Origin: Escherichia phage PNJ-6
Sequence record: OQ076693
Direction: 5' to 3' (one strand)
DNA: 64,000 nt
Both the position numbers and the translations under genes were made by a program. Positions 32,287 through 62,802 of this stretch are shown here, piece after piece; the stretch's first letter is position 1, and each line of letters opens with the position of its first letter. The notes below the pieces were generated by a model. It was not told where the DNA came from and searched no databases. It saw only the letters and a program-made list of their open reading frames with translations.

Positions 32287-33387
32287 TTACGCTGTGAAGA
32301 TTTTATCCCACATCGCAACAACTGCATCTCGATTATACTTCTTCCATACTGCTTCAGCACGTTTAACTCGAGCTTCGTATGTGTCAGTGAATTCTAATAC
32401 AGCTTTTGTGTAAAGCGCAACTACTTCTTTCTTAGGAGTAGAGGAATCAATTTCTACACGCACAGTATCTGGGTCGTATTCGAATGTCGCATGAGGATAA
32501 TCCTTAAAAACTAACTGGATTACAGGGACACCTTTAGAGATGGCTTCAATAGAACTATTCTCTACCGTACCTGTGTCAGGACACGTATTAATAAGTGCTT
32601 TAGCTGTTTTAAGACGTTCCATGATTTCACTGTGTGGAGCATCAATAATAACAGGATATTTAGCTGGTGGTGCCCATTTGCTTGGACAGTATCCTACACC
32701 ATTTTCGCCTAGTGCTTTAATCGCTTCAAGAGCAACATCAGTACGACGCATTTTAGTGTCATAACGTTGTGCACTAATAATCAGATCAGTCGCCGGGAGA
32801 ACTTCTGGCTTTTCAGTCAAACAAATAACCGGATAATCTTCGGCTTCAAACAACGGATTTGCTCGCCAATAATCATAATCAATTTTGTCAGTCAGAGCTG
32901 AAGTCATATAACAATATTTGCGTTCAAATTCACGGAAGGCTTTAGTAGGAGCATAACTCTTACCACCATTCTTATGAATTTGAATAGTCTGGTCCCAAAT
33001 TTGAACAATGCCACGAGATACCGGTTCAAATGGTGTTGCCATAAAATTCTTATGAACTTTAGAGAGACCTGCGTCTTTAATTGCCTGAACGGTTAGTTTA
33101 GTCGGTTCCATAGTAACAACAAAATCGTATTCATGGATGCCGGCTAGTTCAACAATCTTACGAGCCATAGTATAACTCATACCTAGACTAAATTTAGTCA
33201 GATGCCCAACAGGATGGTGTGTAACTTTCCAGTCACCAAACGTGTCATTATCAAAGCCGATATAATCAATATCAGCACCGATGGACACAAGATATTTCAA
33301 CACATTTAAATGTACTGCTTCAAGACCACCTTGTACACGGTCAGGATTAAATGGGACTGCACGAGATGGGATAAACATAACTTTCAT
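32287..33387 (-). CDS. GT-B fold glycosyltransferase (candidate hmC-DNA sugar transferase)
   Basis: 366-aa ORF; N-terminal Rossmann-like start (MKVMFIPSRAVPF) and C-terminal GT4-like donor-binding motif (TGTVENSSIEAISKGVPVIQ); between rIIA and 39, where T4 has no glycosyltransferase. Confidence 0.65.
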   Translation of the reverse strand: MKVMFIPSRAVPFNPDRVQGGLEAVHLNVLKYLVSIGADIDYIGFDNDTFGDWKVTHHPVGHLTKFSLGMSYTMARKIVELAGIHEYDFVVTMEPTKLTVQAIKDAGLSKVHKNFMATPFEPVSRGIVQIWDQTIQIHKNGGKSYAPTKAFREFERKYCYMTSALTDKIDYDYWRANPLFEAEDYPVICLTEKPEVLPATDLIISAQRYDTKMRRTDVALEAIKALGENGVGYCPSKWAPPAKYPVIIDAPHSEIMERLKTAKALINTCPDTGTVENSSIEAISKGVPVIQLVFKDYPHATFEYDPDTVRVEIDSSTPKKEVVALYTKAVLEFTDTYEARVKRAEAVWKKYNRDAVVAMWDKIFTA

Positions 33388-53499: not shown

Positions 53500-54048
53500 T
53501 TAACGAGCCCATTTGATAATTTCTGTAATCAAATTATTACGTTCGCTTGCATTAAATCCTATAACTTTGTTAGCACCATCATGATTAAGTAATTGATACG
53601 TTTGGATTTCGTTATGAATTGCAAACTCTTCAAAATACGAAATGACTGTATTAAACCTGAATGAAGACAAAGTAATAAGGTCGTCTTCAAAACTTTCAGT
53701 CATTTCGTTACGTGTTAAAATAATTGTGAACACATCATGGTTTTGGCAAAGACGAACATAATCCTGTTCATAAACGTCAAGAACCGAGTCCGCATCTTGT
53801 CGAATACGTCCATAAACCCAGTTACTAATATATCCACGGTCTAACAGATAAATCTTAGTAGGGTCTAAATAATTCAACATCGTTTCGAAACAGCCAACTT
53901 CATTTCGAGACTTAACATCGAAACGTCCATCAACTGTTCGTTTAGGGAAATCAATCTTTACATATCTTTCACTAATTTCCATTATGTCATTAATGAAAGT
54001 TGTTTTACCAGCATTATCCGGGCCATCTACTAAAATAATTTTAGCCAT
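53500..54048 (-). CDS. P-loop kinase-like protein
   Basis: 182-aa ORF with N-terminal Walker A (ILVDGPDNAGKTT), like small nucleoside/nucleotide kinases; occupies part of the T4 beta-gt interval between uvsX and 42. Confidence 0.5.
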   Translation of the reverse strand: MAKIILVDGPDNAGKTTFINDIMEISERYVKIDFPKRTVDGRFDVKSRNEVGCFETMLNYLDPTKIYLLDRGYISNWVYGRIRQDADSVLDVYEQDYVRLCQNHDVFTIILTRNEMTESFEDDLITLSSFRFNTVISYFEEFAIHNEIQTYQLLNHDGANKVIGFNASERNNLITEIIKWAR

Positions 54049-54049
54049 T

Positions 54050-54949
54050 TTATTCCTCGATTACGACATCTTCATATTTAGGTATATTATACGGCGAAGA
54101 AATTAAAGCATTAAAGTAGATGAACTCGCCAAGACCTGGATGGAATACTTCTTCAGGATTTTCGAAGTATTGAATCTTCGGACGTCCTTTAAGAATTTGA
54201 TAGTACTCAGTTTTAGTTGGTTTAAAAATTCGAATCAGCGCTTCTTCAGGATACTTATTTCTGTCGAAGCTATTATTTGGATCGGTTATATAAAGCGGTT
54301 GACCTAATTGAATTGCACATTCAACCACTTGTTCAAAACGATAGCACGGGTCACTAATTCGAAATGGATGAAAAATACCATCTAGATGAATAGGAGCCAA
54401 ATCACCTACAAGACGCTGCATGATGGAAGGACGTATAACTTTCTGCGTTACGATAATCTTATTACCATCTGCACCTGCGTTAACCAGCACTTCTTTTTGA
54501 CGTTCATTCAACACAGTAGTTTGAAGTGAACGATTAACAGACAACATGTCGGTTTTTAAGAATTCGTCAATATAAAAACGTGGTTTATTAGGGTCTGCAG
54601 TGATATTGAAATTGAATTCTACGTCAAAATTGCCGTCATATCCAGTGATATCTGTGATTAGAAAATCACAATCATAATAATCAATTAATGAATCAACCAC
54701 AAATTCATTTTCAGACCAGAAATATTTACGAGTGTTATATGCGTTATCTTTATACCATAATGGAACAAACTTAAATTCTGGGAAAAGACGTTCGCATTCT
54801 TTAATATCAGATGCATTACGTGGATATGTAATCACATCACCCGGATTAGCACGGTGCAAATGAAGTTGGAAGTTGCCATCCTTAAGGATAGCATACTGTC
54901 CAGTTTCATAAGACCGCATACTCAAGATAGGTACGCGGAAAATAGCCAT
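54050..54949 (-). CDS. hypothetical protein (in place of T4 beta-glucosyltransferase)
   Basis: 299-aa ORF immediately upstream of gene 42, overlap-coupled; no recognisable motif by eye. Confidence 0.5.
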   Translation of the reverse strand: MAIFRVPILSMRSYETGQYAILKDGNFQLHLHRANPGDVITYPRNASDIKECERLFPEFKFVPLWYKDNAYNTRKYFWSENEFVVDSLIDYYDCDFLITDITGYDGNFDVEFNFNITADPNKPRFYIDEFLKTDMLSVNRSLQTTVLNERQKEVLVNAGADGNKIIVTQKVIRPSIMQRLVGDLAPIHLDGIFHPFRISDPCYRFEQVVECAIQLGQPLYITDPNNSFDRNKYPEEALIRIFKPTKTEYYQILKGRPKIQYFENPEEVFHPGLGEFIYFNALISSPYNIPKYEDVVIEE

Positions 54950-55665
54950 TAGACAAGGAATCCTTTAACATAATCAAAATCACGTTCAAACACATGGGCA
55001 CTTACCATGGTATGAGTATAATCACCAACTTCTACACCACATTCGTTAGCGATATAATGAAGTAATTTTCCTTGGAGATAAAAATCCAACTGCATAACAA
55101 CAGCACAGTTCTGAGAACGCATATGACAGTGGGTATAAAGCTTACCATCACGAATATAATAAGTCACTGAGTCAGTACATGGATATTCAAGTGTTTCGTC
55201 TGAATCAAGCAAAGCCTGATCAGAACTTTCTAGAATTTGGAACACAACTCTTCGAGAGTTAGGTTTTTCTTTAAGTTCTTTTAGAAGAGTTGGTAACTGG
55301 GCCGCAATGCGAGGACCATAGAAAGTGTTGAAGTTTGCAGGCAAAGCGTCTGATTTAGGTTTAGAAATAAATTTAGCGACGTTAGGATATGCCTTAAATG
55401 CTTCTTTTGCATCAGTACCACCAGAAATCATAAATTTCCAGAAATCTTCAGCATATTCATAAGAGATGCGATTAATACGTGGGTCGGTCATTTTGAATGA
55501 TGAAGGGGTATCAACAACTACTGTCATAGACCCAATTTCATTACAACGTCCAATACGAGAATCAGTAACGAACTGTGGATTTTCTAAAATTTCACGATTG
55601 ACAGCTTTAAATGCGGATTGAAAATCTGCGGCTTTAATATATTTCATTGTGTTATGTTTTCCCAT
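54949..55665 (-). CDS. 42: dCMP hydroxymethylase (thymidylate synthase fold)
   Basis: 238-aa ORF with TS-fold catalytic-cysteine region (LEYPCTDSVTYYIRDGKLYTHCHMRSQN); synteny uvsX...42...43. Confidence 0.72.
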   Translation of the reverse strand: MGKHNTMKYIKAADFQSAFKAVNREILENPQFVTDSRIGRCNEIGSMTVVVDTPSSFKMTDPRINRISYEYAEDFWKFMISGGTDAKEAFKAYPNVAKFISKPKSDALPANFNTFYGPRIAAQLPTLLKELKEKPNSRRVVFQILESSDQALLDSDETLEYPCTDSVTYYIRDGKLYTHCHMRSQNCAVVMQLDFYLQGKLLHYIANECGVEVGDYTHTMVSAHVFERDFDYVKGFLV

Positions 55666-55683: not shown

Positions 55684-55708
55684 ATTATATACTCAATTCA
55701 TAAAGCTT
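55684..55708 (-). promoter_or_regulatory. possible MotA-dependent middle promoter for gene 42
   Basis: Minus-strand AAGCTTTA (near match to the MotA box) 11 bp upstream of TATAAT (rc of 55684-55689); about 20 nt upstream of the gene 42 ATG. Confidence 0.3.
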
Positions 55709-55785
55709 ATTTGAATTTCTTAGCGATGTTGATATAACGTAAAGCTTCAGCATCGATATTTCCAAGAACACTATGAAGAAATGCA

Positions 55786-55947
55786 TCAGCGTAGTATTCT
55801 AGTTGAACAGGTTTCTTTAATCACTTTAGCCGCTTTAGTTTCAAACAGGCCCATAAGGGCCTTTTTAAGAATTTGTTCGTTGCTGTTAATTTTAATAGTC
55901 AAAATCTCTTCGTTAAGTTGGTGGTTAAAAGTTTTTCTAGAAATCAT
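55786..55947 (-). CDS. small ORF (53 aa) coupled to the upstream cassette gene
   Basis: Below ORF-track cutoff; ATG overlaps the stop of ORF 55944..57104 (ATGA); contains a GGCCC-TTAT-GGGCC hairpin, so it could instead be a terminator region. Confidence 0.25.
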   Translation of the reverse strand: MISRKTFNHQLNEEILTIKINSNEQILKKALMGLFETKAAKVIKETCSTRILR

Positions 55948-57104
55948 TCTGGGTACCTCAAAGCGTCATCAGAGTTAGTTATATCAATAATAGATATAGA
56001 GTTTTCTGATAACCCATTTTTAGATAACTGACGTTTATAATATCTTTCACAATATGTACACGTCGTCCCGCAGATTTCATTAGCACAATCGAAATCTGGA
56101 TGTTTGAACCACCTTTTTTCTAAAAAGCCATCTAACAAAGAGGTTTCAATATTTACCGTATGTGAAAACTCAGTCTCATTTTCAAGAGTGAAAATGGTCT
56201 CTAAAGGCTTCCACAATTCCAACAAATTACCTTCAAACTTTTCAGAAGCGTAAGCTTCAAGAACTTTCAAAATGTAGTCGGTGCTACCTGTACGTCCTGA
56301 AACTTTAAATTGAGTGATACCAATATCATTATAAAGTTTCAAATCTTGGGGACGAACAAAACGAGTTCTCAACCAGTTAAATGGGTCTGTATCACGAGCT
56401 TTAATACAGTGCTGCATAGGATATCCATTTAAGGATTTAGCATCATCAGCTGTAACATCAGTACTATGGAAAATATAGCAAGAGTCACGATAGCTACAAT
56501 GTGTTGTATACCCTTTACCAGCATTAGAACAGAACTCATTTACAAGAACTTCAAATATTATATTGTTCTTATTACAAAACTCTGCTGCACGCTTCAGGAA
56601 AGAAACTGAACGGTTCTTATGAATTCCACAGCAGACCTTTTTGATATTATATTGGTCATGCAAGTATTTGATTTGAGTTACAGCATCGACATGTAGAATT
56701 GTTGAAACTTCAATCTCAATGTCTTTATTGACTTCACGAACAATTTCCATAACAACAGGGTTAGCGATAGTAATACGCCATACGCCTATTGACCAAAGAT
56801 ACTGAACATAATCCTGAATAGCTTTCTTCTTCCACTCAACTAGTTCTCTTTTTGAACCAGGATTTATCGTGTTGAGTGTATAGTTAAAGCAAATACCTAA
56901 TTCGTTACAACGTTTAACGTAATCTTCTAACATCTTTTTGTCAACGTCAGGAAGCCTAAAATCAGGTCTGGCTGCTACAAAAGCCATTTCTCTTGTAGAG
57001 CCGTATACTTCGTTTATCAAGCTATTAGGATAAGTTTTATTGAGCTCTACGATTTTATCAAGAAGAGCTAAATCAAAATTCGTTCCGATTTTAAAAGTAT
57101 TCAT
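55944..57104 (-). CDS. Cys-rich protein, distant peptidase-U32-like resemblance; function unknown
   Basis: 386-aa ORF; segment FEVLVNEFCSNAGKGYTTHCSYRDSC resembles the U32 signature; C-terminal cysteine cluster CANEICGTTCTYCERYY; first gene downstream of the sugar cassette. Confidence 0.35.
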   Translation of the reverse strand: MNTFKIGTNFDLALLDKIVELNKTYPNSLINEVYGSTREMAFVAARPDFRLPDVDKKMLEDYVKRCNELGICFNYTLNTINPGSKRELVEWKKKAIQDYVQYLWSIGVWRITIANPVVMEIVREVNKDIEIEVSTILHVDAVTQIKYLHDQYNIKKVCCGIHKNRSVSFLKRAAEFCNKNNIIFEVLVNEFCSNAGKGYTTHCSYRDSCYIFHSTDVTADDAKSLNGYPMQHCIKARDTDPFNWLRTRFVRPQDLKLYNDIGITQFKVSGRTGSTDYILKVLEAYASEKFEGNLLELWKPLETIFTLENETEFSHTVNIETSLLDGFLEKRWFKHPDFDCANEICGTTCTYCERYYKRQLSKNGLSENSISIIDITNSDDALRYPE

Positions 57105-57161
57105 TTTTTTTGCATCTCACGTTAATTGACGCGATGGTTTTTGCAGGTCTTACTTAAATTA

Positions 57162-57563
57162 TTATAGATTCGGTTTATATGATTTAAATGTTTCGAATTC
57201 GCCTTTATTCATAAGAGCTTTGAATTCGTCAGGACGCATAGCTTTATCGTCGATAATCCAATCATATACTGGTTTATGTGTTAGCAAATTATGGTACTTC
57301 AAGCCAATGTTTGCCAAGTTCTGAATCAGACTTGGGAGAATGTCAATTGCTATACGACCAGGACCGACTGACTTCATACCGCGAGCAGTGTAAAGCGTTA
57401 TGGTATGCCCTGCATCATACAGGGCATTAATGGCAGACACCATTTCGACGTCTGGTTTGAAGTTCACGTAATCACGATTGTTATTCCACTCTGTTATACA
57501 ATCATCGACATCAAAACAAAGATTAAGCATGTTTTCTACACGGTGCATTAGATTCGTTCCCAT
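57162..57563 (-). CDS. HAD-superfamily phosphatase (minimal)
   Basis: 133-aa ORF with HAD motif I DxDxT (LCFDVDDCITEW), motif II-like TARG, motif IV-like acidic pair (YDWIIDDKA). Confidence 0.6.
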   Translation of the reverse strand: MGTNLMHRVENMLNLCFDVDDCITEWNNNRDYVNFKPDVEMVSAINALYDAGHTITLYTARGMKSVGPGRIAIDILPSLIQNLANIGLKYHNLLTHKPVYDWIIDDKAMRPDEFKALMNKGEFETFKSYKPNL

Positions 57564-59233
57564 TGATGAGTGATATCGCCACCGATTGGACGATAAGAAA
57601 CACCAGTTTCTTTATCAGTTAGTACCCATTTACCAGGATTTTTTGTAATCAGAGTAGCCGTTACAGGTTCTGCTACGTCATAACTAATAGAGCCGTCCTG
57701 AAGTACACGGCCCATGTTACGTAATTGCTTAGTCAGAAGTTCCATACCTTTATAATATGCGGCTACCGCTTTAAGTGGATTATTCTTGAAATAACCACCT
57801 AATGCAATCCAGATAATTGCCACTGCCAAATGATGATACTCGTTAAACGAACTCATCTTTCCATATTTGTAAACTAATGGATTGATGTTAATAGTCACAT
57901 TACAAGTTGTTTCATCAATAGTAAACTGGCCCCAGGTCGGATTAGCGTTGAATTCATCATAACCTGAAACAGCATAAAGCACTTTAGCTTCATCGTACAA
58001 TTTTGGCCCGTAAATCTTGGTTTCGCCAAAATATCCACGAGGGTCGATAAACTTGACTTCACCGTTATCAGTAATCATAGTATTACTGAAGTTCGGGTCG
58101 CCATGAATAACAGAGTACTGTCCCTGAGAACGGTTATGATAACGAATAAGATGTTCTAAAGCTTGTTTCAGCATTGGCTTCAGACGCCCAATCTTAGTGT
58201 AGTTCACATGTGTGATTTTACCAAATGAATCAATCAATGGTTGAATACTTTCACAACGATCAATAACTTTCGTATAGAATTCTTTAGTGAAATCACGGCG
58301 AACAGTTTCAGGACTTACAAAATAAGTGTCTGTGCTGAATTTCAGTGCATCTAAAATTGCATCAACAATTTGTGGACGAGCAAGACTCGATTTGGATTTA
58401 ATATATTCAAATGCCGGCTTACCTTTAATGCGTTCCATTTCAAAGTTATTTTCATTAACAGAAACTAACTGAGGAACTGAATCTGATTTCACTTTAAGAT
58501 ACCATGAAATCTCATCTTTCTGAAGAGCTCGACCCTGTTCGGTTAATGCGAATTTAGTTACAGTTTCTTCACCAATTTCAACTGCATTAAAACTACGATT
58601 AAGTTCACGAACTTCATGAGCTTTTTCAAGTTTAGGCATATCACCTAAATCAATTAGATTCATAAGCTCTGATTTATTGAATGCACTGCCGTAAAGAAAT
58701 TCTACGAAATCACGTCCTTTGCAGTATTCATGAATTTCCTCATCAGTAGAGCCCATATAGAATTCCCAGTCTTTGAACTGATAAATTCCTACAACATTAC
58801 CACCTGTTGAACCTACGTTAGTGATATTTTCACCGTCGAAATTATATCGGCATTCGTCACCCTTAACATAGATTGCGTTAACATTCCAAGACCATGAACC
58901 GAAATCAGGAATAATATCACACCAGTTAACAATTACATTATGGCCGTCTAAATCTTTGTGTAATTTAGCAAGAGCATAAGCAGAACCATACGCTTCATCA
59001 ACTGTACGAATAGTCACATTGAACCCTTCTTGCTCACAATAAGCTCGAACAGTTTCAGCAAATTTTGAATGAACTACTACAATAATTTCATCTGCGCCAA
59101 GGTCAGAATAAATTGTATACAAATTGCTCAGAATAGTGTCTTGTTTATAGTTAACAAGCACCTTAGGAATATGATGCGTTATTGGATACAAACGAGTTGC
59201 CAGTCCAGCACCAAGAATAACAGCTTTTTTCAT
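57548..59233 (-). CDS. bifunctional sugar kinase / sugar-1-phosphate nucleotidyltransferase
   Basis: 561-aa ORF; N-terminal NTP-transferase signature (MKKAVILGAGLATRLYPIT...PKVLV); C-terminal APH/choline-kinase-type motif (VIHGDPNFSNTMITDNGEVKFIDPRG); overlaps the HAD gene by 16 nt. Confidence 0.7.
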   Translation of the reverse strand: MKKAVILGAGLATRLYPITHHIPKVLVNYKQDTILSNLYTIYSDLGADEIIVVVHSKFAETVRAYCEQEGFNVTIRTVDEAYGSAYALAKLHKDLDGHNVIVNWCDIIPDFGSWSWNVNAIYVKGDECRYNFDGENITNVGSTGGNVVGIYQFKDWEFYMGSTDEEIHEYCKGRDFVEFLYGSAFNKSELMNLIDLGDMPKLEKAHEVRELNRSFNAVEIGEETVTKFALTEQGRALQKDEISWYLKVKSDSVPQLVSVNENNFEMERIKGKPAFEYIKSKSSLARPQIVDAILDALKFSTDTYFVSPETVRRDFTKEFYTKVIDRCESIQPLIDSFGKITHVNYTKIGRLKPMLKQALEHLIRYHNRSQGQYSVIHGDPNFSNTMITDNGEVKFIDPRGYFGETKIYGPKLYDEAKVLYAVSGYDEFNANPTWGQFTIDETTCNVTININPLVYKYGKMSSFNEYHHLAVAIIWIALGGYFKNNPLKAVAAYYKGMELLTKQLRNMGRVLQDGSISYDVAEPVTATLITKNPGKWVLTDKETGVSYRPIGGDITHQWERI

Positions 59234-59414
59234 GTTGTGGTCCTCATTGGTAAGTAGGAGTATTGTACACTATTCTAGTTAAAGCATTCATACTTTGCTT
59301 GTAGTCCAATCATAATCCATCCGATTACAAGTGTTGGAATCATTACTGGAGCTTAACGGCTCCAGTAGATAGTCATGACAAGCATCAATAGTAAAAGTCC
59401 TATTGTTATTGCTT

Positions 59415-60050
59415 TCATTGTTCGCCTCGTAACATGGCACCTAGTGCACCGCCAGGGTGGAACTTAAGGAAGTCATTAGAGGTAAATCCACGTTCAGACG
59501 AAAGGTTGATAGCAAACGTATCGATAAGCGCTAACAACAATGTAGTGGACATGGTCGGAGCCAGAGAATTCTCATCAACCTCTACTGCGATGCCTGTACA
59601 GAAAGAGTAATCAAAAAGGGCTTCATTTTCTTGTGGAATGTCTGGGTTACAATGCAACAGAATCTGTTTGACGTTCGGACGAATCATTTTAAGATGCTTA
59701 GCCACACCTATCATTTCTTCAGTTTTACCAGAACGACTAATATGAATCAACACATCATTAGGCGCAATGAATCCTGCATCACCGTGAGAATAATGCCCTG
59801 TGTTCAAGTACATACTCGGGATACCGAGTGAAGCAAATGTCTCAGAAGCTTTAGTTGCAATATTAGCATTCTTACCAACACCTGTAATAATTACTCGGCT
59901 TTCATAATTACTAAGTCCCGGGCGTCGAAGAGTTTCTAGAATAGCATTATAACGAGCAGGGTTTTGACTAATTACTTTGGCCATAGCGGCCAAAGAAGAA
60001 GCTTGTTTTATGATTGCGTCAATAGCGATAGTAATAGGAGTAGTTTTCAT
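59415..60050 (-). CDS. SIS-domain sugar-phosphate isomerase (arabinose-5-phosphate isomerase-like)
   Basis: 211-aa ORF with KdsD/GutQ-type SIS motifs (ITGVGKNANIATK; HISRSGKTEE; LAPTMSTT; HPGGALG); no CBS domains. Confidence 0.75.
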   Translation of the reverse strand: MKTTPITIAIDAIIKQASSLAAMAKVISQNPARYNAILETLRRPGLSNYESRVIITGVGKNANIATKASETFASLGIPSMYLNTGHYSHGDAGFIAPNDVLIHISRSGKTEEMIGVAKHLKMIRPNVKQILLHCNPDIPQENEALFDYSFCTGIAVEVDENSLAPTMSTTLLLALIDTFAINLSSERGFTSNDFLKFHPGGALGAMLRGEQ

Positions 60051-60090: not shown

Positions 60091-62802
60091 TCAAAAATCG
60101 AACATATCGAACAGAGATGCTTTCTTCTCGTAATCGAGTTTCGCTGCTGATGTGAATCCTTCAAGTGGTTTAATAAATGTCTTCTCAAGGAGAACAGTGT
60201 AGTCCATCCAATGAAGTACGTCGTCTTTAATTAAATCTGTGATTTCAGTACCAGAAGGCCATGCGATACATTTATCACCGAATGGGTTTCCTTCACGTAA
60301 AGGCAGAACATATACTTTTTCACCTTCTACAACTTGCGGTGCATCGATATTACCTTTGATAGCCCGGTTATACGTCAGAATTCCACGAATATGGAACGGG
60401 CATTTGGGACCAGGGAATCCACCTACATCATATTTAGCAATGTTATTCGCAGAAGATACCGACGCGATGCTAATATAATTCAATTGACGGAATTCTTTTT
60501 CAAACTCTTTAAAATATTCTTGTAATGATTCTTCACCTTCTTGAAGCATACGACGAATACATTCTTTAAGAGCTTTCTGTACTGCTTTAGGGGTCGAAGA
60601 TTTCTGAGTCTCTAGACCCATGATTTTGAGTTTAGGCTCGGCGTAACGAGTACCTTCCATATCCCACACGTTTAATGCATAACGTTTCTTACCAGTCCAG
60701 AATCCACCAATACCTTTAGAACCAAGCGGAGGACCAGCGATAGCTTCTCGGTCCATGAACATTAAGTGTTGTTTATTGTTCATGTATTCACACATTTCAC
60801 GGAAACCTCTATCAATAGCTGGTTCCATACGTTCACGTGCAAACTTATCTAAGAAGTCTACCCAATGGTTGGTATCACGGAATTTAGATTCACCAACCTT
60901 ATCGATAATTTTATCAGCAGATACGTAAATAGAGTCTGTATCACCATAAAGAACGAAAGCTTCACCTTCTGTACCACAAACTTCATTCAGATATTCATTA
61001 ACTTTACGTTCAATCCACTGTAAAGCCATTTGACCAAATGTTGTGATTGCAGTAGCATTACGCAAATCATAATAACGGAACCAAACGTTGCCAAGCGCAC
61101 CATAAAGTGAGTTGATAAGCAATTTACGGTTAATTTGGGCAGTCATACCTGCAACTTCAGTACGTTGAGCTCTAAACAACATTTCATTAAGAGATTTAGC
61201 AGACAACTTTTTAATCTTTTCTTTAATCTCATCACTGAAGTCGAAACGATAATCAACATCTAATGGTTCATCAACAGAAAGATTAGGATTATGCAATGCC
61301 TCTTTAATTATTTCACCGTTACGTTGAGCTGCAAGCATGTAACCTTTATGTTCTTTACGTTGATTAAAGACTTTAGTGATTTCAGTTGGAACAACACCGT
61401 CACGGTCTTTATAATACATCATGCCGTTAGGAGAACAACTGTACACATCAGAAGGACGTTCAGCAACAGCGTTAATATAATCATGCAATGGAGCTACTTT
61501 AAACGTTCCTGCTATTGTTTCTGGGCTAATATTCACTTGGCGAATAATACTTGGATACAGAGATGTAAGGTCGAAACTCATTACATATTTGTATCGATTT
61601 GGAATAGGTTCCTTAACAAAAGCGCCGGGATAAGGTTGAACCGGATGAGAACGACCTTGTGGAATCACCTTGTTCTGCTCTTTAAGGCTATTAAAAATAA
61701 TAGCATCCCATGTTTTAATTGGGCTAAACACAGATTGAATCTGTATCTTAGCATAATAACCCATGTCTAAACTCAAGTTGATGAACTGACGTTTAGCATC
61801 AATTTGCAATACCCGATACACGTCGATAATGTTATAAGAAATATATCGTTGGTGATTGCTTTCACGAAGCTTAGAAATAGGGCCGTCATATTTCAGTTTA
61901 CCAACGTTCAATTCAAATTCTGAAATGTAATCCAGAGAATATGATGGTTGATTGGTAAAAGAGAATTTTTTGTAAAGGTCAATGTAATCAAGAACAGAGA
62001 TACCGAACAATGTAATGATTTCACGAGAACCATACATGTTTTCGATAACTTTAACACGAGTTTTACGATGTGGTGATAAACGTTTCGCAGTAGATTCGCC
62101 AAAAATATTCTTGATTCGGTTATACACATATGGAATATCAAATGACTCAACGTTCCATCCAGTCAAAATGACAGGAGTTTTCTGTTGCCAGAAGTTGAGA
62201 TATTCCATCAACAATTCTTTTTCGTTATCGAACGGCATATAAATGATTTTATCGATAATTTCGGATGGAACTTCATCACCACCTTGTTCTTGAAGCTTAG
62301 CCGCAATTTCGATAGACCATTCTTCCACATTACCATATGGAGAATTCAATAGATCAAATACGTAGAACCTGTCGTCAATTGAGTCATAATGGGTGATAGC
62401 ATCAATCGGATGTTTTGCTTGTGACGGCTCAGGGAACCCGTCCGGAGATGTTACTTCGATGTCGAAGTTAGCCACACGAATTTTTGTATGGTCGTATTTG
62501 ATTTCATAGTTATAAGTGTCAGACAAATACGCCAATTTGAAATCGTCCATGCCAAGTGCTTCAAGACCGATATCTTCCATGCGTTTAATCCATTGTGAGG
62601 CATCACGCATATTGGCGAACAACTTACGAGTACACGGCTTACCGTAGATATCGAAATATTTCGTAGCCTGACTTTCTGGGCAATGAGCAAACAGTGATGG
62701 TTTATATTCTACTTCACGAGTACGTTCACGGCCGTTAGAATCGATGTAACGTTCAAAAATTGAATCACCAATCTGTTCAACCGTTAAGTAAAATTCTTTC
62801 AT
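60091..62802 (-). CDS. 43: DNA polymerase gp43 (family B)
   Basis: 903-aa ORF; exo motifs (NFDIEVTSP; YNIIDVYRV), polymerase motif A (SFDLTSLYPSII), motif C (LYGDTDSIYV); from memory the N-terminus looks like RB69 gp43. Confidence 0.95.
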   Translation of the reverse strand: MKEFYLTVEQIGDSIFERYIDSNGRERTREVEYKPSLFAHCPESQATKYFDIYGKPCTRKLFANMRDASQWIKRMEDIGLEALGMDDFKLAYLSDTYNYEIKYDHTKIRVANFDIEVTSPDGFPEPSQAKHPIDAITHYDSIDDRFYVFDLLNSPYGNVEEWSIEIAAKLQEQGGDEVPSEIIDKIIYMPFDNEKELLMEYLNFWQQKTPVILTGWNVESFDIPYVYNRIKNIFGESTAKRLSPHRKTRVKVIENMYGSREIITLFGISVLDYIDLYKKFSFTNQPSYSLDYISEFELNVGKLKYDGPISKLRESNHQRYISYNIIDVYRVLQIDAKRQFINLSLDMGYYAKIQIQSVFSPIKTWDAIIFNSLKEQNKVIPQGRSHPVQPYPGAFVKEPIPNRYKYVMSFDLTSLYPSIIRQVNISPETIAGTFKVAPLHDYINAVAERPSDVYSCSPNGMMYYKDRDGVVPTEITKVFNQRKEHKGYMLAAQRNGEIIKEALHNPNLSVDEPLDVDYRFDFSDEIKEKIKKLSAKSLNEMLFRAQRTEVAGMTAQINRKLLINSLYGALGNVWFRYYDLRNATAITTFGQMALQWIERKVNEYLNEVCGTEGEAFVLYGDTDSIYVSADKIIDKVGESKFRDTNHWVDFLDKFARERMEPAIDRGFREMCEYMNNKQHLMFMDREAIAGPPLGSKGIGGFWTGKKRYALNVWDMEGTRYAEPKLKIMGLETQKSSTPKAVQKALKECIRRMLQEGEESLQEYFKEFEKEFRQLNYISIASVSSANNIAKYDVGGFPGPKCPFHIRGILTYNRAIKGNIDAPQVVEGEKVYVLPLREGNPFGDKCIAWPSGTEITDLIKDDVLHWMDYTVLLEKTFIKPLEGFTSAAKLDYEKKASLFDMFDF

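Follow-up and report, generated by a model that had tools for sequence, protein, structure and literature searches.

DNA carrying arabinosyl-5-hydroxycytosine is known from the phages RB69, HY126, NP and Bas46/47 (PMC13326640; PMC13390438), and Acinetobacter phages carry the same arabinosylated base (PMC13326640). Thomas et al. 2018 reported arabinosyl-hydroxymethylcytosine (ara-hmC) and proposed ORF055c and a corrected ORF53_52c as uridine diphosphate (UDP)-arabinose genes (PMC6024577). RB69 DNA contains mono- and di-arabinosylated 5-hydroxycytosine and not ara-hmC (Lee et al. 2026, PMC13326640), and nuclear magnetic resonance (NMR) and mass spectrometry (MS) place the sugar in an ether link to 5-hydroxycytosine (PMC13326640; PMC13390438). 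The modification cluster spans RB69 gp45-gp55 (PMC13326640). For HY126, PMC13326640 summarises work of He et al. 2026 in which AfhE converts arabinose-5-phosphate to the 1,5-bisphosphate, the HAD protein AfhF converts the bisphosphate to arabinose-1-phosphate, and the N-terminal domain of AfhE makes UDP-arabinose. Knockout of the homolog of this fusion enzyme in the Shewanella phage Thanatos abolished propagation (PMC12838424). Here we describe the corresponding locus of Escherichia phage PNJ-6 (record OQ076693), at positions 55786-60050 of the 64,000-nucleotide stretch that was analysed (the window). With a probability of roughly 0.85, this region forms the half of the arabinosyl-5-hydroxycytosine cluster that supplies the sugar donor, in a Mosigvirus of the RB69/HY126 type, and it includes a U32-family gene whose product we tentatively propose to be an O2-independent C5 hydroxylase.

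The locus and its relatives

The approximately 4.4-kb region has 98.0-98.5% DNA identity to more than 150 Mosigvirus genomes (98.1% for RB69). The gp43 DNA polymerase gene flanks the cassette on one side (60091-62802; 903 amino acids (aa), 100% identical to the HY126 protein) and a thymidylate-synthase-family gene flanks it on the other (54949-55665, minus strand). Gene order in the cassette matches the description of HY126 and RB69, with the cluster between gp43 and uvsX; a 5-hydroxy-dCMP (deoxycytidine monophosphate) synthase, a glycosyltransferase and a nucleotide kinase are grouped with the cassette in this interval. Protein identity to HY126 is 99.1% for the isomerase, 99.6% for the hydroxylase, 99.0% for the glycosyltransferase and 99.5% for the kinase, and orthology to AfhE and AfhF is indicated by 97.0% and 100% identity over the full length.

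All five minus-strand open reading frames (ORFs) of the original prediction are present with exactly matching coordinates. Its central claim, a self-contained phage nucleoside diphosphate (NDP)-arabinose pathway for DNA hypermodification, agrees with the published model for RB69, DLP3 and HY126 (PMC6024577; PMC13326640). This core reading is correct but already published (Thomas 2018; Lee 2026; He 2026, to the extent summarised in PMC13326640), and the idea that the donor pathway lacked a biochemical definition is out of date, as that account describes it for HY126. The genes at 57548-59233 and 54050-54949 are intact single ORFs in the window (561 and 299 aa). In the RB69 reference record both are split (052c/053c; 046/047), according to the literature through sequencing errors. 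A promoter and terminator scan was uninformative (21 promoter-like sites, 26 expected).

Sugar-donor enzymes

The gene at 59415-60050 (minus strand), a homolog of RB69 ORF055c/gp55, encodes a 211-aa SIS isomerase predicted from homology to convert host ribulose-5-phosphate to D-arabinose-5-phosphate. The protein matches Pfam SIS (1e-10) and PHROG 5670, "arabinose 5-phosphate isomerase" (4e-116), and contains the motifs GVGKN at residue 57, SRSGKT at 105 and HPGGALG at 198. It matches NCBIfam KpsF/GutQ at 2e-32 over the SIS part, with 112.9 bits, which is below the curated cut-off of 203.7 because the CBS pair is missing; profile searches found SIS only and no C-terminal tandem CBS domains, as originally predicted. 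Judged by these profiles, the protein is a truncated, phage-form arabinose-5-phosphate isomerase and not a KdsD equivalog. No SIS isomerase is found near the cluster of fusion enzyme and HAD gene in the phages JS10, Thanatos-2, R3_1 and Clarke_MM3. Phages without the isomerase presumably rely on host KdsD/GutQ for arabinose-5-phosphate.

A bifunctional AfhE-type nucleotidyltransferase-kinase fusion of 561 aa is encoded at 57548-59233 (minus strand). The N-terminal part matches Pfam NTP_transferase (8.5e-10, residues 3-99), and there are also matches to NCBIfam sugar-1-phosphate nucleotidyltransferases and to PDB 1jyk (2e-5). The C-terminal half contains kinase-type motifs (HGDPNFSN at residue 377, FIDPRG at 395) and has weak matches to kinase families over residues 344-409, all under threshold. 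Of the fusion as first proposed, the nucleotidyltransferase half is thus recovered by profile, and the kinase half by its motifs and sub-threshold matches.

The AfhF-type minimal HAD phosphatase, also foreseen by the original prediction, is a 133-aa protein encoded at 57162-57563 (minus strand). It matches NCBIfam TIGR01689, capsule biosynthesis phosphatase, at 4e-13 (under the cut-off of that model) and HAD-IIIA at 0.026. Motif I is DVDDC (residues 18-22), in which Cys replaces Thr/Val. A Pfam search of the protein gave no match; its phosphatase function is supported by the 100% identity to AfhF. The profile searches proposed at the outset were run, and recovered the SIS, NTP_transferase and HAD-type families with the kinase below threshold.

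We assign the later steps of the pathway from the biochemistry reported for HY126 AfhE and AfhF (He et al. 2026, through the account in PMC13326640), which share 97-100% identity with their window counterparts. In the fusion, the kinase domain would phosphorylate C1 of arabinose-5-phosphate to form arabinofuranose-1,5-bisphosphate, the HAD phosphatase would take off the 5-phosphate, and the nucleotidyltransferase domain would use arabinofuranose-1-phosphate and uridine triphosphate to form UDP-arabinofuranose. The step order, on that summary, is isomerase, kinase, phosphatase and nucleotidyltransferase via arabinofuranose-1,5-bisphosphate. The cassette explains how RB69-type phages obtain a sugar donor not produced by E. 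coli. Arabinosylation protects the DNA from many restriction enzymes and CRISPR nucleases.

A distant homolog of the fusion enzyme (28%) occurs in Vibrio phage D486 (locus L020, 8998-10305). The surrounding genes are QueC-like, radical SAM and nicotinamide phosphoribosyltransferase genes; neither U32 nor a ThyA homolog is among them, and the enzyme may be part of some other modification or metabolic system.

Base hydroxylation, glycosylation and the order of steps

The flanking gene at 54949-55665, originally taken for gene 42, encodes a protein that matches Pfam Thymidylat_synt (2e-15) and the PDB entries 9iqc, 9ir2 and 9iqu (E 1e-162). Residues E160, C163, N186 and D194 correspond to L143E, C146, D169N and N177D, the published signature of 5-hydroxy-dCMP synthase (PMC13326640). 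A gp42-type dCMP hydroxymethylase is expected to have Asp at the position of E. coli ThyA D169, where the window protein has N186. RB69 gp48 makes 5-hydroxy-dCMP, incorporates 18O from O2 and binds flavin (PMC13326640). From its signature residues and the near-identical solved structures, the window gene is a flavin/O2-dependent 5-hydroxy-dCMP synthase of the thymidylate synthase family and not gene 42. It would supply 5-hydroxy-dCMP using flavin and O2.

Two glycosyltransferases are predicted to place one or two arabinoses on 5-hydroxycytosine. The putative first arabinosyltransferase (54050-54949, minus strand), a homolog of RB69 gp46:47, had no match in a Pfam search; its role was proposed in PMC13326640. 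The putative second one (32287-33387, minus strand) is located away from the cluster. It was named as a glycosyltransferase by the original prediction and is real, with 99% identity to RB69 ORF003c/gp3, for which the role of second arabinosyltransferase was proposed in PMC6024577 and PMC13326640. The gene at 53500-54048 (minus strand) encodes a P-loop thymidylate-kinase-like nucleotide kinase homologous to RB69 gp45 (PHROG 761, 4e-45).

The original prediction had a different route, in which the HAD protein frees arabinose, the kinase forms arabinose-1-phosphate, and the donor serves hydroxymethylcytosine made by a gene 42 hydroxymethylase. Several points favor it over the bisphosphate route. 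Table 1 of PMC13326640 keeps the older order, phosphatase then kinase, stating that RB69 gp51 "dephosphorylates Araf5p to Ara" and that the kinase domain "phosphorylates Ara to Araf1p", and ara-hmC is the base given in Thomas 2018 (PMC6024577). The bisphosphate order is known through a secondary account (PMC13326640) of He et al. 2026, and the kinase domain of the window fusion passes no curated profile threshold. The text of PMC13326640, citing the HY126 biochemistry, nevertheless has AfhE act on arabinose-5-phosphate before AfhF, which contradicts a phosphatase step before the kinase via free arabinose. The ether link seen by NMR and MS makes the base arabinosyl-5-hydroxycytosine and not the arabinosyl-hmC first supposed (PMC13326640; PMC13390438), and the ThyA homolog has the D169N signature, with 18O from O2 incorporated. 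We give the route via free arabinose little chance of being right and retain the bisphosphate order.

A cassette for a 3-deoxy-D-manno-oct-2-ulosonic acid (Kdo)-type or capsule-type sugar is hardly credible: arabinose-5-phosphate is a Kdo precursor and the best curated family of the HAD protein is a capsule biosynthesis phosphatase, but profile searches of the window ORFs did not find KdsA, KdsB or KdsC genes, the cluster is embedded among a 5-hydroxy-dCMP synthase, DNA glycosyltransferases and a nucleotide kinase, and chemical analysis has identified arabinose on the virion DNA of RB69 and its relatives (PMC6024577; PMC13326640; PMC13390438).

A U32-family protein in the cluster

The gene at 55944-57104 (minus strand), RB69 gp50, encodes a predicted iron-sulfur protein of 386 aa. 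It was first listed as being of unknown family, but it matches Pfam Peptidase_U32 (PF01136) at 7e-11, with 42.2 bits against a threshold of 22.4. It shares the U32 domain and a TIM-barrel-like fold, and the closest solved structure was deposited as a U32 peptidase. In E. coli the characterised U32 members are RlhA, TrhP, UbiU and UbiV. Prephenate is the oxygen donor in O2-independent, UbiU/UbiV-dependent hydroxylations (PMC10990095) and is required for TrhP and RlhA (PMC10990095; PMC6599085). The RlhA product is 5-hydroxycytidine, which involves the same ring chemistry as the phage base, and a Glu and two Cys are essential for hydroxylation in RlhA and TrhP (PMC6599085).

Similarity of the phage protein to these enzymes was found by profile comparison. 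BLASTP against the four E. coli proteins gave no significant match, phmmer against PDB sequences gave none, and with NCBIfam UbiU the protein reaches 18.5 bits, where the cut-off is 440. A hidden Markov model (HMM) of the phage U32 family had only a weak match to TrhP among the E. coli paralogs. With hhalign, RlhA is the top paralog (74% probability, E 2.8e-5, 205 columns), followed by TrhP at 12% and UbiU at 4%. In the RlhA alignment, at its 74% probability, E190, C203 and C209 of the phage protein fall on RlhA E161, C169 and C176. These three residues are invariant in a 124-sequence alignment of the phage and metagenome subfamily, which has ten invariant cysteines in all. Cysteine spacing is C192-x10-C203-x5-C209-x23-C233, with C158 and C177 also invariant, as opposed to the canonical CX6CX15CX3-4C. 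There is an invariant C-terminal CX4CX3CX2C at residues 340-352, outside the U32 core. Four cysteines (C572, C580, C611, C614) also lie C-terminally in E. coli RlhA, and TrhP, UbiU and UbiV show no such cluster. By these comparisons, the window U32 protein is a member of a distinct phage-restricted subfamily and not an ortholog of a characterised member.

Distribution and partners of U32

By tblastn, the U32 gene is present in 221 phage records, all with at least 80% identity, and the fusion enzyme is present in 371 records, 57 of which are Acinetobacter phages. No Acinetobacter phage is among the genera listed for U32 in the 221 records. HMM scans did not find U32 in the Acinetobacter phages Kimel, Acj9 and Melin (three genera), and chorismate mutase was likewise not found in the three Acinetobacter phages examined. 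Acinetobacter is a strict aerobe. Since these Acinetobacter phages lack U32 and Acinetobacter phages nevertheless produce the arabinosylated base, U32 is not needed for the sugar pathway, and the 386-aa gene, listed in the cassette by the original prediction, is not part of that pathway.

U32 is translationally coupled to a type II chorismate mutase gene in the phages LC53, Entb_45, R3_1 and Thanatos-2, the product of which passes the Pfam threshold. Chorismate mutase was found by tblastn in 51 records, always adjoining U32 and the ThyA homolog, with a divergent copy in a Proteus phage. The hosts of phages with the coupled pair belong to at least seven genera (Serratia, Enterobacter, Klebsiella, Shewanella, Proteus, Yersinia and Pectobacterium). 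The PheA residues R11, R28, K39, E52, S84 and Q88 are kept in all seven phage chorismate mutases examined. This coupling points to hydroxylation because chorismate mutase makes prephenate, the oxygen donor of U32 enzymes.

The Kanagawaviruses Entb_45 and IME523 have glycosyltransferases that are 99.3% identical, and the U32 and chorismate mutase pair is present in the former (L002, 5989-7397) and absent from the latter (L030, 7689-8056) as a unit. In Thanatos-2 the pair follows the kinase gene (L005, 8001-9391) instead of preceding the ThyA homolog. As far as gene content indicates, U32 and chorismate mutase behave as one mobile unit. Endonuclease genes occur beside U32 in two phages: a NUMOD3-type homing endonuclease gene lies between the HAD phosphatase and U32 in Serratia phage LC53 (L001, 5352-5990), and a segB-like endonuclease is directly upstream of U32 in Yersinia phage phiR1-RT (L022, 1-345).

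Compared with Klebsiella phage R3_1, U32 is 86% identical and the DNA polymerase 69.5%. Nonsynonymous divergence (dN) of U32 is 0.12-0.18, the lowest in the cluster, and synonymous sites are saturated, which argues for long-term purifying selection on U32. We considered recent horizontal transfer of the gene and rejected it, given the saturated synonymous sites and a third-position identity of 46-50%, no higher than that of the neighboring genes.

A possible anaerobic route to 5-hydroxycytosine

Arabinosylating phages destroy deoxycytidine triphosphate and need 5-hydroxy-deoxycytidine triphosphate for replication, and to our knowledge the only phage hydroxylase for 5-hydroxycytosine requires molecular oxygen. 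Their hosts live largely without oxygen in the gut. We propose that U32 would hydroxylate C5 of cytosine, as dCMP or in DNA, without O2 and with prephenate as the oxygen donor, and that it would back up the O2-dependent 5-hydroxy-dCMP synthase during anaerobic host growth. This dual logic would parallel TrhO/TrhP and UbiIHF/UbiUV. On the residues and gene linkage described above, U32, with the accompanying chorismate mutase in relatives, could be a prephenate-dependent C5 hydroxylase that opens a second, anaerobic route to 5-hydroxycytosine; we hold this at slightly less than even odds. A search of the full-text literature, which did not cover He 2026 or Mahler 2025 (the latter reportedly among the publications of the phage arabinose-donor pathway), found no paper tying U32, chorismate mutase or prephenate to phage 5-hydroxycytosine.

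Some observations weigh against this proposal. Homology to the characterised hydroxylases is remote (no BLAST match; 74% by hhalign), and the cysteine spacing departs from the canonical CX6CX15CX3C. Chorismate mutase is absent from Mosigviruses, including the window, where U32 is present. E. coli Dhakavirus JS10 and Enterobacter phage IME523 have the rest of the cluster, and HMM scans did not find U32 in either, so U32 is dispensable under the conditions in which they were isolated. Dhakaviruses such as JS10 come from stool, which also argues against an absolute need for U32 in the gut.

U32 might instead be an electron-transfer or reductase partner, acting on the flavin of the synthase or on a sugar or heterocycle. 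Consistent with this, U32 adjoins the flavoenzyme gene, the two being translationally chained in some phages, its ten invariant cysteines suggest redox clusters, and the gene is labelled "sugar or heterocycle reductase" in PMC13326640 (and peptidase in other records). However, same-family hydroxylases of Acinetobacter phages work without U32, and homologs occur in phage contigs without a nearby ThyA homolog. A reductase would also leave unexplained why the gene is repeatedly linked to chorismate mutase or DAHP synthase, and the conserved Glu/Cys/Cys triad is the one needed for hydroxylation by RlhA and TrhP (PMC6599085). We consider a reductase role unlikely.

A collagenase-like peptidase unrelated to DNA modification is very improbable. 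Database records call the protein a peptidase, putative protease or collagenase-like protease, in line with the name of the nearest solved structure, but the characterised E. coli U32 members have roles in hydroxylation and not in proteolysis (PMC10990095; PMC6599085). In addition, the gene is restricted to arabinose-cluster phages and lies inside the cluster (221 records by tblastn), is coupled to chorismate mutase, and evolves more slowly than DNA polymerase.

If U32 is the proposed hydroxylase, it would explain how the modification is made in anoxic habitats. U32 hydroxylases, whose substrates to date are RNA and quinones, would gain a first member that acts on DNA precursors, and prephenate would for the first time be seen to donate oxygen in a viral system. 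The approximately 50%-identical relatives in large uncultivated phages would then be stand-alone hydroxylases feeding other DNA glycosylation. Oxygen-dependent differences in host range would be predicted among therapeutic phages, and the locus would lend itself to in vitro reconstitution of U32 chemistry, being compact and yielding a product that is easy to measure.

Distant U32 homologs in metagenomes

The metagenomic part of the U32 subfamily has hundreds of members at approximately 50% identity. The contigs are uncultivated, phage-like and partly very large, up to 466 kb. All six sampled contexts (L026 7001-9000 and 12073-13179; L025 7001-8891; L008, L009, L011 and L027 around U32) resemble modules of phage replication or nucleotide metabolism, and a ThyA homolog within 7-8 kb of U32 is lacking in all six. 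Two contigs have thymidylate kinase, UDG, PolIII-alpha and dCMP deaminase genes upstream of U32, and another has NT5C, deoxynucleoside kinase and nucleoside deoxyribosyltransferase genes downstream. Directly after U32 on one contig comes a gene for a true DAHP synthase (2.6e-70), which opens the shikimate route that leads to prephenate. One contig pairs U32, by translational coupling, with a DNA glycosyltransferase of the TET-associated type (TAGT); genes for a UDP-galactopyranose mutase and for a member of the dUTPase/dCTP-deaminase family are nearby. Another has radical SAM, U32 and PolIII-alpha genes. Going by gene content, a U32 hydroxylase may be the basis of DNA hypermodification systems at these loci that have so far gone unrecognised.

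Small accessory genes

The 53-codon ORF at 55786-55947 (minus strand), whose start overlaps the stop of the 386-aa gene, had been noted as an ORF coupled to that gene. It is the remnant of a 79-codon gene (phrog_8601; 55707-55947, minus strand) that is frameshifted in the window, and it matches positions 1-50 of the 79-position PHROG profile. In most Mosigviruses the gene is intact (79 codons, a single tblastn piece), and in the window it is found in two pieces. Alignment with PECP20, phiR1-RT g049 and PM2 gp045 shows that the frameshift leaves the 53-codon ORF and an out-of-frame tail. The gene is disrupted by a different frameshift in HY126 and by a nonsense codon in phage F2; on these alignments it has been broken independently at least three times among near-identical phages.

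The small gene has the motif Y-x-D-A-F-x-H-S ... R-x-I-N. It is a separate conserved gene, because its homologs in Yersinia phage phiR1-RT and Pectobacterium phage PM2 lie between U32 and chorismate mutase. We rejected decay from a chorismate mutase as the origin of the 53-codon ORF: with a profile of four phage chorismate mutases, no frame of the corresponding slots in the window and in HY126 reached 2 bits, and the same profile detects the Proteus phage enzyme at 2e-14. The reconstructed 79-aa protein also has no match to the chorismate mutase profile, and the two genes coexist in Yersinia and Pectobacterium phages.

A second small ORF, a two-helix membrane-type ORF coupled to the isomerase (59275-59418, minus strand), encodes 47 aa in HY126. 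In the window it contains a perfect hairpin (59346-59365, minus strand; CTGGAGC-CGTTAA-GCTCCAG). The 6-bp loop is inverted relative to HY126 (CGTTAA in the window, TTAACG in HY126), and this inversion creates an in-frame TAA (59353-59355), a stop at codon 22 that cuts the ORF from 47 to 21 aa.

Comparison with known systems

The closest systems, HY126 Afh, RB69 gp51-gp55 and DLP3 gp81-gp83, have the same genes, order and architecture between gp43 and uvsX. Nothing of substance differs from the HY126 Afh system, apart from window-private lesions in the two small accessory ORFs.

The ADP (adenosine diphosphate)-L-glycero-D-manno-heptose pathway (GmhA, HldE, GmhB) uses an SIS isomerase, a kinase that forms a bisphosphate, a HAD phosphatase and a nucleotidyltransferase fused to the kinase. 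Its chemical logic is identical to that of the corrected arabinose route. The phage substrate is a pentose and the nucleotide UDP, in place of heptose and ADP. The phage kinase is APH/choline-kinase-like and the transferase GlmU/RmlA-like, so the enzymes are analogous and not homologous, and the domain order in the phage fusion is reversed. The HAD homolog DLP3 gp81 has a Foldseek match to heptose-1,7-bisphosphate 7-phosphatase (PMC13326640).

The U32 hydroxylases RlhA (ho5C2501 in 23S rRNA), TrhP (ho5U34 in tRNA) and UbiU/UbiV (anaerobic ubiquinone) have the U32 domain, fold and triad in common with the phage protein, and phage U32 is linked genomically to prephenate supply. The phage protein differs in its cysteine spacing, its extra C-terminal CX4CX3CX2C and its presumed substrate, a deoxynucleotide or DNA and not RNA or a quinone. 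TrhP is paired with the O2-dependent TrhO, and UbiU/UbiV with UbiI/H/F, for the same products (PMC10990095; PMC6599085). In the phage, the proposed O2-dependent partner is the ThyA-family 5-hydroxy-dCMP synthase.

T4, with gene 42 and alpha- and beta-glucosyltransferases, follows the same strategy of a hydroxyl handle from a ThyA-family enzyme and post-replicative glycosylation, and the gp43-uvsX neighborhood is likewise common to T4 and the window. The handle in the window is a ring hydroxyl derived from O2 via flavin, whereas in T4 it is a hydroxymethyl group derived from folate and water. Window-type phages must make their sugar donor, which is not a host metabolite, and their O2 requirement is a dependency that T4 does not have.

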